Assembly: GCA_030041545.1 (NCBI GenBank)
Contig: JASHNQ010000062.1
Location: forward strand, 38,156-102,155
From: a candidate division FCPU426 bacterium
GTDB taxonomy: Bacteria > Oederibacteriota > Muellerivitia > Muellerivitales > Muellerivitaceae
Length of the DNA stretch: 64,000 bases
Direction of reading: 5' to 3'
In this document: in pieces, positions 9,227-13,374 of the stretch
How positions within the stretch are numbered: position 1 is the stretch's first letter
Layout: each line of letters opens with the position of its first letter
The notes under the pieces: model-generated
Database searches by the model: none
Seen by the model: the letters and a program-made list of their open reading frames with translations, nothing else
What the model was told of the DNA's origin: nothing
Position numbers and translations under genes: made by a program

Positions 9227-9443
9227 AGGAAGCGAAGATTTGCCTGCCAACCGCAGCTGGAAGGTTCAGCCCTGCACCTCTTCTCTAATGCTACGGGAGG
9301 CAACCTTCGCTAACTTCTGAGTTGTTCAAGGATGCGAACGTTGGCTTGCCATACATAGCTGGGGCATTACTGCGCGCCCTCCTTCGCTAATGCTACGGAG
9401 GTCATACTTCGCTTACTTTAAGAATATTCAAGGAAGCGAAGTA
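9227..9443 (-). repeat. two tandem ~101-bp CCA-flanked units plus a partial third, downstream of tRNA-Ala
   Basis: Unit boundaries at 9444, 9342 and ~9241; shared CTTCGC...GCGAAG inverted repeat and CCTCC(G)TAGCATTAG(C)GAAG(G)AGG hairpin. Confidence 0.8.
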
Positions 9444-9519
9444 TGGTGGAGGCGATGGGGATCGAACCCACGACCCCTTCCATGCCATGGAAGTGCTCTC
9501 CCAGCTGAGCTACGCCCCC
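9444..9519 (-). tRNA. tRNA-Ala(GGC)
   Basis: Cloverleaf, G3:U70 pair, anticodon arm CTTCC-AT-GGC-AT-GGAAG, encoded CCA. Confidence 0.97.
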
Positions 9520-9604
9520 AACCTGGAACGTCGTCCTTGCTTAACCAAGGGATGCAATTTTAACGAAAAGCCTCAAAAAAACAAGCCAAACAAGGAAGCG
9601 ATGA

Positions 9605-9705
9605 TGGATTGCCACCCGTAGCTTGGTCATTCAACCCGCCACCTTCACCTAAAGCTTCGGTGAGCACTCTCCGTTTGGTTTATAAATTTCATGGAAAGCG
9701 TAGGG
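9605..9705 (-). repeat. CCA-flanked ~101-bp unit downstream of tRNA-Val (degenerate)
   Basis: TGG at 9605 and 9706; ACGCTTTCC...GGAGAGTG arm; CCGAAGCTTTAGGTGAAGG hairpin. Confidence 0.7.
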
Positions 9706-9782
9706 TGGTGGGCGAAGTAGGATTCGAACCTACGACCCCCTGCGTGTAAAGCAGGTGCTCTAACCAGCTGAGCTATTCGCCC
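9706..9782 (-). tRNA. tRNA-Val(TAC)
   Basis: Cloverleaf, anticodon arm CCTGC-TT-TAC-AC-GCAGG, CCA. Confidence 0.97.
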
Positions 9783-9794
9783 TTATAAAAAAGA

Positions 9795-9826
9795 AACCCT
9801 AGCGCGTATGAAACGGCTAGGGTTTA
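9795..9826. terminator. hairpin downstream of spoVS
   Basis: AAACCCTAGC...GCTAGGGTTT inverted repeat. Confidence 0.6.
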
Positions 9827-9848
9827 AACCCAACGGTAAAATGCCGGA

Positions 9849-10130
9849 TTATTTTGAGTTTTTTTCGATGTTGAGAAAGAACTTAATAGCGCTTTTCTTT
9901 TCGCCATCGATCGTGAGATGGATGAATTCTGGTTTGAAATTGGCGTCCATGCCGTCGCCCTTTAAAAACCCGCGGGCAATGGCGATGGCCTTCACCGTGT
10001 TGTTGATGCTCTCAGGCCCCATGGCCACGATCTCAACGCCTTTGCCGTCTCTCACGTTGTTGGCGATGGCCCCAGCCACGGTGGAGGGATTGCTTTTTGC
10101 GGCGACTTTGAGCGTCATGATCCCTACCAA
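9849..10130 (-). CDS. spoVS: SpoVS family protein
   Basis: LKVAAKSNPSTVAGAIA, MGPESINNTVKAIAIARGFL, FKPEFIHLTIDGEKKSAIKF match the SpoVS pattern. Confidence 0.88.
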   Translation of the reverse strand: MVGIMTLKVAAKSNPSTVAGAIANNVRDGKGVEIVAMGPESINNTVKAIAIARGFLKGDGMDANFKPEFIHLTIDGEKKSAIKFFLNIEKNSK

Positions 10131-10177
10131 GAGTGGCTCCTTCTTTCCCTCCGCTCTTCCAACACGTTACCTTGATT

Positions 10178-12615: not shown

Positions 12616-12733
12616 AATTCCCCTCTGGCAATGGAATGACGGCTTAGGTTAATGAAGCGGTTCGACACAAAGAAGCTTTTTGAATTGGCGAATAGAACTT
12701 CAGCCCGATATTGATTAAAAAAATAACCGCAAA

Positions 12734-12836
12734 TGGCCTGCCATACGGAGCTGGCAAATTGATCGCACGCCCTCCTTCGCCAAGGCTGCGGAGGGCATAC
12801 TTCGCTTACTTCAATCGAATTCAAGGAAGCGAAGTA
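12734..12836 (-). repeat. CCA-flanked 103-bp unit downstream of tRNA-Lys
   Basis: TGG at 12734 and 12837; CATACTTCGC...GCGAAGTATG inverted repeat; CCCTCC..CCTTGGCGAAGGAGGG hairpin. Confidence 0.85.
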
Positions 12837-12912
12837 TGGTGGGTGATGCAGGGCTCGAACCTGCGACCCGCTGATTAAGAGTCAGCTGCTCTACCAACTG
12901 AGCTAATCACCC
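12837..12912 (-). tRNA. tRNA-Lys(CTT)
   Basis: Anticodon arm GCTGA-CT-CTT-AA-TCAGC, CCA. Confidence 0.97.
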
Positions 12913-13020
12913 GTATAGGTCCATCGACTTCAAAAACACCGATCAAAAGCGGCGGCAATTTTCACTGCGCATCTCGCCCCGAGTTGGCCGAAGGCTATCG
13001 AGGGGCTGAGCTAATCACCC
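12913..13020 (-). repeat. exact 15-nt duplicate of the tRNA-Lys 5' end plus a hairpin element
   Basis: CTGAGCTAATCACCC at 12898-12912 and 13006-13020; hairpin CGCCCC...AGGGG at ~12975-13005. Confidence 0.8.
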
Positions 13021-13041
13021 ACAAATTTACAACTCGAAAAA

Positions 13042-13144
13042 TGGCTCGCCATACGAAGCTGTGTCATTCAACTCTCGCCCTCCTTCGCTGAAGCTATGGA
13101 GGGCATGCTTCGCTCACTTTAATATTTTTCAAGGAAGCGAAGTA
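13042..13144 (-). repeat. CCA-flanked 103-bp unit downstream of tRNA-Arg(CCG)
   Basis: TGG at 13042 and 13145; same two-hairpin layout as the other units. Confidence 0.85.
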
Positions 13145-13221
13145 TGGTACGCCTGAGAGGGCTCGAACCTCTGACCTACAGATCCGGAATCTGTCGCTCT
13201 ATCCAACTGAGCTACAGGCGC
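13145..13221 (-). tRNA. tRNA-Arg(CCG)
   Basis: Anticodon arm ACAGA-TT-CCG-GA-TCTGT, CCA. Confidence 0.97.
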
Positions 13222-13272
13222 ATCCCAATCCGCTCTTGCTACCACCCAGCCTCATTGACTTCTAGCGAAAGA

Positions 13273-13374
13273 TGGCCTGCCATGCGAAGCTGCCGAATTT
13301 GAATCCAGCCCCCCTTCGCCAAGGCTACGGAGGCATACTTCGCATTGTTTCACAACATCCGTTGAAGCGAAGCA
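13273..13374 (-). repeat. CCA-flanked 102-bp unit downstream of tRNA-His
   Basis: TGG at 13273 and 13375; CATACTTCGC...GCGAAGCATG; CCTTCGCCAAGGCTACGGAGG hairpin. Confidence 0.85.

Follow-up and report, generated by a model that had tools for sequence, protein, structure and literature searches.

A small structured repeat, probably a non-autonomous mobile element, directly 3′ of tRNA CCA ends in a candidate division FCPU426 bacterium

IS200/IS605 insertion sequences and their miniature derivatives (PATEs) carry subterminal hairpins, have neither terminal inverted repeats nor a target duplication, and insert in a strand-specific manner directly 3′ of a short fixed motif, a similar motif being present at their right end; their left and right hairpins are alike because one TnpA binds both. 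Here we describe a unit of about 100 nt from a 64,000-nucleotide stretch of a candidate division FCPU426 bacterium (GCA_030041545.1, contig JASHNQ010000062.1, positions 38,156 to 102,155; hereafter the window), which we judge, at a probability of about 0.7, to be a small structured non-autonomous mobile DNA element inserting next to CCA. The whole comparison covers ten copies at seven sites, namely seven copies in the window and three in a relative, L001. The unit resembles IS200/IS605 elements in that nine of the ten copies stand directly after CCA and themselves end in CCA, with no inverted repeats and no duplication. It differs from them in that the stem of its first hairpin (TACTTCGCTT) is unrelated to the hairpin of its tail (TTGCCA/TGGCAG), in that hairpin 1 lies right at the cleavage site, not some 19 nt off, in that no TnpA or TnpB is encoded in the window, and in that one copy lies in the opposite orientation less than 1 kb from others. 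Judged by comparison, the layout appears closest in logic to IS200/IS605-type single-strand transposition or to circular-junction site-specific recombination, although the likeness between hairpins that defines the former group is lacking.

Other small repeats share some of these traits. [quoted passage not shown] Like the classical MITEs (Correia/NEMIS, ERIC, RUP, Nezha and others), the unit is small, non-autonomous, structured, co-transcribed with its neighbours and polymorphic; it is MITE-like in size and in its dependence on an outside enzyme, but has neither terminal inverted repeats nor a variable target duplication of fixed length. Rickettsia palindromic elements (RPEs) are hairpin-forming repeats without a gene of their own that can occur in frame in protein genes without disrupting them and lie mostly inside genes (PMC10969869). 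Like RPEs (about 100–150 bp), the unit is a hairpin repeat without its own gene, and one of its seven window copies is a 33-codon in-frame insertion; unlike RPEs, the six other window copies are tRNA trailers and the host phylum is unrelated, the two being likened by description only. To our knowledge, no preference of RPEs for tRNA 3′ ends or for CCA has been reported. REP and BIME sequences, which are mobilised by RAYT, are imperfect palindromes of 20–40 nt with a conserved GTAG-type head and often stand in inverted pairs, whereas the unit is 99–103 nt long, has three different hairpins and forms direct arrays.

Among sequences tied to tRNA genes, the rtT repeats of Escherichia coli tyrT and the 3′ external transcribed spacer (3′-ETS) RNAs are structured or repeated stretches immediately 3′ of a tRNA that share its transcript and are freed when this is processed. 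The unit, too, lies directly downstream of a tRNA and in its transcription unit; however, the rtT units come from local duplication, include part of the tRNA's own 3′ end and are not dispersed, whereas the unit shares only CCA and is found at five tRNAs and one non-tRNA site. The Mauriceville and Varkud plasmids of fungal mitochondria are autonomous, about 3.6 kb long, and encode a reverse transcriptase. The RNA of the Mauriceville retroplasmid of Neurospora ends in CCA, and tRNA sequences have been found joined exactly at the tRNA CCA (PMC9925561). Unlike these plasmids, the unit has only 100 nt, no reverse transcriptase is encoded in the window, and a tRNA-like character of its tail is not demonstrable. 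Among small non-autonomous repeats the unit is distinguished by insertion, exact to the base, behind the CCA of tRNAs, and we know of no described prokaryotic repeat family whose insertion is fixed at the tRNA CCA end.

ARAGORN finds eight tRNA genes in the window, every one with an encoded CCA, and copies were located by reading the minus strand from the base after each CCA. Units of 101–103 nt start directly 3′ of the CCA of tRNA-Ala(GGC), Val(TAC), Lys(CTT), Arg(CCG) and His(GTG), giving six minus-strand trailer copies, two in tandem behind tRNA-Ala and one behind each of the other four; tRNA-Arg(TCT), Pro and Glu have ordinary trailers without the unit. Both the occupied ends, with the tandem after tRNA-Ala, and the three unoccupied ones had been named in a preliminary description of this DNA, and ARAGORN together with the minus-strand reading bears them out. 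A covariance model, R1, built from the ten copies and run with filters off over all 64 kb, returns exactly seven copies at 76–115 bits, all within 5.2 kb of one another, while the next best matches, at ≤34 bits, are hairpin 1 read on the reverse strand. The six trailer copies of the earlier inventory therefore stand, but it had overlooked the seventh copy, on the plus strand, as well as solo heads of 14–15 nt (CTTCGCTTCCTTG) behind the Ala array (9225–9239) and behind the Val copy (9591–9604).

The trailer copies are situated inside tRNA transcription units and differ in preservation. Directly after the CCA of tRNA-Ala(GGC) (9444..9519, minus strand, as are all features in this paragraph) lies the tRNA-proximal copy Ala1 (9342..9443; R1 106 bits), which is well preserved. 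Distal to it in the pair is the decayed copy Ala2 (9240..9341; 78.8 bits), a member of subfamily B that ends in CAA and is 69% identical to the copy in the protein gene. Beyond Ala2 lies the Ala solo head, ATCTTCGCTTCCTTG (9225..9239), which matches the unit head at 13 of 15 positions and is preceded by the mutated CAA, not by CCA; a terminator-like hairpin (9185..9204), conserved in L001, closes the Val–Ala tRNA transcription unit. The Val copy (9605..9705; 75.8 bits), directly after the CCA of tRNA-Val(TAC) (9706..9782), is old and strongly diverged, being 51–61% identical to the other copies. The Lys copy (12734..12836), directly after the CCA of tRNA-Lys(CTT) (12837..12912), has the top R1 score of 114.8 bits; the Arg copy (13042..13144; 110.3 bits) and the His copy (13273..13374; 88.8 bits) follow the CCA of tRNA-Arg(CCG) (13145..13221) and of tRNA-His(GTG) (13375..13451) in the same way.

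The head of the unit reads CCA-TACTTCGCTTCCTTG... and its tail ...ATGGCAGGCCA. Hairpin 1, CA-TACTTCGCTT...AAGCGAAGTA-TG, adjoins the target, and its stem is lengthened by base pairs between a conserved TG and the CA of the CCA in front. Hairpin 2 is GCCCTCC...GGAGGGC, and the unit ends in the tail CAGCTnCGnATGGCAGGCCA, the sequence of which is kept across subfamilies. The hairpins and conserved tail of the preliminary description are all present, the third hairpin included, with the tail motif occurring 6 times against 0.02 expected by chance; a CCA on both flanks, also described there, holds for nine of the ten copies, since all ten lie directly 3′ of CCA whereas the terminal CCA of Ala2 is mutated to CAA. 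Where a tail meets a head, the junction takes the form GGCCA^nnCTTCGC (the caret marks the junction). A covariation analysis, which had been suggested as a check, reveals compensatory changes at three base pairs in each of hairpins 1 and 2. Overall, 81% of the cells pair, a share that drops to about 42% once the partners are slid; the weak tail hairpin has 64% paired and zero compensatory changes. Minimum free energy z-scores lie between −3.5 and −4.0 for three window copies (Ala1, Lys and Arg) as well as the relative's Lys copy, and are weaker for the His copy (−1.4) and the gene copy (−1.6). In the Lys copy, the 3′ arm of hairpin 2 plus spacer (12762–12780) is 74% complementary to 12829–12847, a segment that spans the tRNA-Lys 3′ acceptor strand, CCA and the head, and a possible alternative pairing could sequester the tRNA 3′ end.

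The contig of the closest homologue, L001 (14.8 kb, candidate division FCPU426 bacterium), is syntenic with the window, and it lacks the unit at four of the sites that are filled there. At the tRNA-His site its CCCA is followed by TCACTCGG, at the tRNA-Arg(CCG) site its ACCA is followed by TTTTGAGAAAT and then tRNA-Lys, and at the tRNA-Ala site, where the window has two units, its CCA is followed directly by ATCTTCGCTTCCTTG, the indel being exactly two units; the site in the protein gene is empty as well. The tRNA-Lys site is filled in both, and in the outgroup L056 it is empty, CCA being followed by TTTTTTCTATTT. The Ala site is empty in L056, L058, L059 and L065, and likewise the gene site. 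Because the outgroups are empty there, the empty state is ancestral at the Lys, Ala and gene sites. The right-hand junctions are exact, the unit's CCA being directly followed by the original trailer. The Val site is an exception: the window has one decayed copy and L001 has two, a fresh tRNA-proximal one and then a decayed one (L1_Val2), the polymorphism is limited to the tRNA-proximal copy, and there is no alignable element-free Val trailer among the relatives. The copy nearer the tRNA is the better preserved one in each of the two tandem arrays (R1: 106 vs 79 bits, and 105 vs 69 bits), which fits repeated insertion at the tRNA's CCA and not at the unit's terminal CCA. The more distant relatives L056–L060 and L065 have no copies; an ancient founder copy was considered and is not supported, as the Val–Ala spacers of these relatives align unconvincingly with the unit.

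The unit thus inserts polymorphically, forms tandem arrays from repeated hits, has landed in frame in a gene and is located in tRNA transcription units. The presence–absence polymorphism between the window and L001, the empty outgroup Lys site and the clean 33-codon gene insertion argue that the unit moves and, at the level of sequence comparison, mark it as mobile DNA and not only a conserved trailer. The same sites bear on the alternative that the unit is a host RNA module (a processing signal, 3′-end protector, terminator aid or small RNA) whose patchiness reflects recruitment and loss. Such a role would suit the constraint on stems relative to loops, which extends even to the shared tRNA-Lys site, the pairing of hairpin 1 with the CA of the tRNA's CCA, and the co-transcription of the copies with tRNAs. 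However, the unit is missing from the relatives' orthologous trailers although the tRNAs are almost unchanged in the compared stretches, three of the eight window tRNAs do without it, one copy is antisense inside a coding gene, distal array copies decay, and no Rfam family matches. Since orthologous sites are empty in relatives and one copy lies antisense in a gene, a trailer RNA is not the primary explanation, and we consider a host module very improbable.

The copy in the protein gene was noticed through a plus-strand tail match at 8339–8358, outside the range covered by the preliminary description. It is a subfamily B copy of 99 nt (designated ORF; 8260..8358, plus strand; R1 86.8 bits) that lies antisense and in frame, with a CCA immediately upstream (8257–8259) and its own terminal CCA at 8356–8358. 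Its host gene (6417..9155, minus strand, within a long open reading frame (ORF) at 6417–9179) encodes a 912-aa membrane protein with C-terminal tetratricopeptide (TPR) repeats. The product is probably a glycosyltransferase; the names of its homologues include 'tetratricopeptide repeat protein' and '4-amino-4-deoxy-L-arabinose transferase-like glycosyltransferase', several homologues have TPR Pfam matches, and one distant match has a GT39-type domain. The window protein carries a 33-residue insertion exactly at the element, missing from all eight aligned homologues (one of them 82% identical), and the host reading frame is open across it (99 nt = 33 codons). Relative to L001 the indel is of exactly 99 nt. 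The identical insertion is present in L002, a second, independent assembly of the same organism, which makes an artefact of assembly unlikely. A 10-nt direct repeat, GCCAACCTTC, stands on both flanks of the insertion and also occurs in the element's tail–head junction, while the head ACCTTCGC is native to subfamily B, as it pairs with the internal arm TGCGGAGGTT and recurs in Ala2. We rejected the GCCAACCTTC repeat as a target duplication made by a transposase, the other sites being without any such repeat.

Occupancy is strongly skewed towards tRNA genes, with five of the eight tRNA ends filled compared with 1 of about 3000 other CCA sites (both strands, outside the element region), and CCA alone is therefore not the target. 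The earlier proposal of an element that targets CCA is largely borne out, every insertion lying directly after CCA, and falls short in that CCA by itself is insufficient; the 3-bp target duplication it envisaged is indistinguishable from an element that carries its own terminal CCA without duplication. The gene and Ala targets also resemble the unit's own head. The Ala target (empty in L001), ATCTTCGCTTCCTTG, is identical to it at 13 of 15 positions and the sequence behind the Val copy at 12 of 15, values reached by none of 2969 CCA-flanking controls in either case. The His, Arg and Lys flanks match the head no better than chance, having only CCA(T) in common with the junction. As three of the six target sites (Lys, Arg and His) offer no more than CCA(T), insertion does not generally require homology to the junction; judging from these sequences, such homology may help.

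Homology of this kind could also mean that no dedicated machinery is involved, the copies arising by template switching, replication slippage or short-homology recombination between trailers and look-alikes (CCA plus CTTCGC), with arrays as donors. The 10-nt microhomology flanking the gene insertion would then be expected, the Ala and Val solo heads would be direct repeats able to mediate both gain and precise loss, and the confinement of all seven window copies to 5.2 kb would agree with such local exchange. Yet the His, Arg and Lys targets share no more than CCA(T) and the insertions are nevertheless base-exact at five tRNA ends, thousands of equally good 3–4-nt microhomologies exist elsewhere, and the conserved tail and the stems with compensatory changes suggest recognition by a factor. 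We therefore regard an origin without machinery as improbable.

Searches for ends, relatives and enzymes complete the picture of the unit. An inverted-repeat search of two copies with their flanks returned no terminal inverted repeats, its sole internal match being hairpin 1, and the head TACTTCGC does not pair with the tail when compared with the reverse complement TGGCCTGCC. No variable target duplication of fixed length was found; only CCA stands on both sides, identical at every site. No transposase, integrase or reverse transcriptase domain was detected in 44 of the 46 non-overlapping ORFs of at least 80 aa in the window; the two ORFs outside the domain scan are the host gene, with TPR and GT39-type homologues, and a GH94 gene, the orthologue of which has GH94 Pfam families. 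No Rfam family matched the units at gathering score over 64 kb, where only tRNAs were recovered, and at E ≤ 1 over 8800–17200 neither an IS605-type nor any other RNA family was found on them; the one overlap, a tmRNA_permuted match that is not significant (20.6 bits, E 0.54), begins in the 3′ portion of tRNA-Ala and reaches Ala1. These results agree with the absence of a transposase from the window as set out in the preliminary description, in which the family was not recognised by name.

Beyond the window, a blastn query with one unit matched none of 72,556 plasmids or 50,697 phage records, and two pattern scans of viral contigs gave only chance matches, which the covariance model rejected. 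A hairpin-1 pattern scan of a genome collection returned the FCPU426 syntenic contig as its sole true match, and the other 11 loci, scoring ≤18.5 bits with the model, were rejected. A further 4.9 kb beyond the window (L066) holds no copy.

The nature of the junctions also allows a route through RNA to be weighed. A CCA-ending RNA of about 100 nt, released from a pre-tRNA, would be copied by a reverse transcriptase that starts at its 3′-CCA and switches template to a tRNA CCA, and the hybrid cDNA (tRNA-CCA-unit-CCA) would recombine with the tRNA gene. By such template switching the Mauriceville retroplasmid acquires tRNA sequences at its 5′ end. The route would account for a junction exactly at the mature tRNA 3′ end for five tRNAs, for the CCA end of the unit, for head-to-tail tandems without extra bases and for the residence of copies within tRNA transcription units. 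Against it, the window encodes no reverse transcriptase, and the right-hand junction is exact although a cDNA begun at the unit's CCA offers no homology there. Moreover, the gene copy runs antisense to its host's transcript and shows 10-nt DNA homology to the junction, which speaks for an event at the level of DNA. Nor is the tail recognisable as tRNA-like, there being no tRNA-clan match on the units; the tail hairpin plus G-CCA would form a weak minihelix at best. Such retro-mobility would suit the tRNA specificity neatly but is, in our view, improbable, and because it leaves the right-hand junctions and the antisense gene copy unexplained, we favour a DNA-level event driven in trans.

For the mobile element favoured here, we propose strand-specific integration at the phosphodiester bond just 3′ of CCA, overwhelmingly the CCA of a tRNA gene, in which the element would bring its own CCA as its last three bases, giving CCA on both sides of each copy. 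Tentatively, and at somewhat less than even odds, integration would be a recombination or strand transfer between the tail–head junction (GGCCA^nnCTTCGC) of an excised, circular or tandem copy and the CCA target, with the enzyme supplied in trans. This enzyme would be encoded elsewhere and could be a site-specific recombinase or a single-strand HUH/Y1-type transposase. The preference for tRNA genes would imply that recognition extends upstream of CCA, be it to the T-arm and acceptor sequence or to a fold of the displaced strand. It is conceivable, though unlikely, that the enzyme reads the tRNA acceptor end itself, be it as the folded displaced sense strand, with the tail hairpin plus G-CCA as a mimic, or as the CCA-3′OH of the mature tRNA; if so, this would be a tRNA-end-directed integration system in bacteria acting on a 100-nt passenger, for which we know of no described counterpart. 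Once inserted, a copy would be co-transcribed with the tRNA and tolerated because it folds on itself.

Divergence between copies gives an indication of their age. The well-preserved copies are 68–86% identical pairwise. In pairs that involve the window Lys, Ala1, Arg or His copy, 9–17% of stem positions differ compared with 22–39% of non-stem positions, and divergence in stems proceeds at a third to a quarter of the pace seen in loops. The two Lys copies, one from each species at a shared site, differ at 5 of 58 stem and 16 of 47 non-stem positions (Fisher p = 0.0015), while there is no significant difference between stem and non-stem positions in the L001 Lys–Val1 pair or in the decayed Ala2–ORF pair. 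The stem constraint may have either of two sources, namely source copies kept functional for mobility, or inserted trailers kept self-folded in a way that spares the tRNA. In the GH94 gene nearby, 31% of four-fold degenerate sites are different between the window and L001 species, and since non-stem divergence between copies (30–39%) is close to this neutral value, activity would fall around or after the species split.

Several of our observations weigh against a mobile element that inserts next to CCA. Within the window there is no autonomous partner or candidate enzyme, and the family is known from only two related metagenome-assembled genomes with ten copies. No copy pair exceeds 86% identity, and there is no sign of current activity. 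The constraint on stems, including that between the same-site Lys copies, could reflect a host-level function rather than a purely selfish one. Stem mismatches are G-U and A-C in equal measure (11 vs 10), and from this lack of asymmetry neither the folding strand nor RNA as opposed to DNA can be inferred. Finally, junction homology is missing at the Lys, Arg and His sites, and this reading does not account for why tRNA ends are taken in preference to other CCA sites.

The surroundings of the copies contain other rearrangements. Between the Arg copy and tRNA-Lys lies a 107-nt insertion (12913–13019, minus strand) that is missing from L001, is flanked by a 15-nt direct repeat, GGGTGATTAGCTCAG, corresponding to nucleotides 1–15 of tRNA-Lys, and has a terminator-like hairpin inside it (12937–12954); it is a second, different kind of tRNA-linked rearrangement. 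About 3 kb (13460–16600) separate tRNA-His from tRNA-Arg(TCT), which are only 200 nt apart in L001. This stretch holds a gene for an RNase H-fold 3′–5′ exonuclease-like protein (14169–14990, plus strand) and, on the minus strand, a nucleotidyltransferase gene (15064–15579), a DUF2283 gene (15661–15915) and a 100-aa ORF (15906–16208); it has no integrase, and looks like a small islet integrated at the tRNA-Arg(TCT) 3′ end. Tandem partial 3′ halves of tRNA-Arg(TCT), from anticodon loop to CCA (13818–13905 and about 13703–13790, minus strand), in which the T-loop is replaced by a G+C-rich insert of ~32–37 nt (CCTGCCCTGAGCGAGCGAAGCGGGTCGAAGGGTCCGG and a variant), are probably remnants of its attachment site. 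Directly after the CCA of a partial tRNA-Arg stands a hairpin, CCTCGCTTTC...GAAAGCGAGG (13772–13821, minus strand), with the layout of hairpin 1 (R1 16 bits, E 0.02), which may be a truncated, very old copy of the unit.

In the more distant relative L058 (2884–3050; also L057, 259–430), the tRNA-Ala trailer is longer by ~130 nt and holds a degenerate version of the 3′ end of tRNA-Ala (GGTTGGATCCCCATCCCCTCCGC), and tRNA trailers in this clade appear, from such sequences, to be generally prone to rearrangement. In the window, a gene for RNase PH occupies 17484–18182. Far from the units, no Pfam match to two adjacent giant ORFs of 1582 and 2026 aa (47027–57819, minus strand) reaches threshold, and the only one worth naming is a weak FlgD Ig-like match, placed at the C-terminal end of the 1582-aa ORF.

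Insertion of the unit has consequences for its hosts and for the reading of their genomes. In uncultured phyla such units enlarge tRNA spacers and can give rise to false ORF calls and to unusual insertions in aligned proteins. The gene copy adds to the Rickettsia case a second one, from outside that genus, in which a repeat contributes a peptide to a protein without destroying it. The trailer copies form a natural experiment on the amount of structured extra RNA that is tolerable on a pre-tRNA, in which hairpin 1 sequesters the CA of the CCA. The mobilising enzyme, once found, could provide a compact integration activity directed by sequence and structure. If confirmed genome-wide, the family would be a bacterial mobile element with its insertion point set to the base by the tRNA CCA end.

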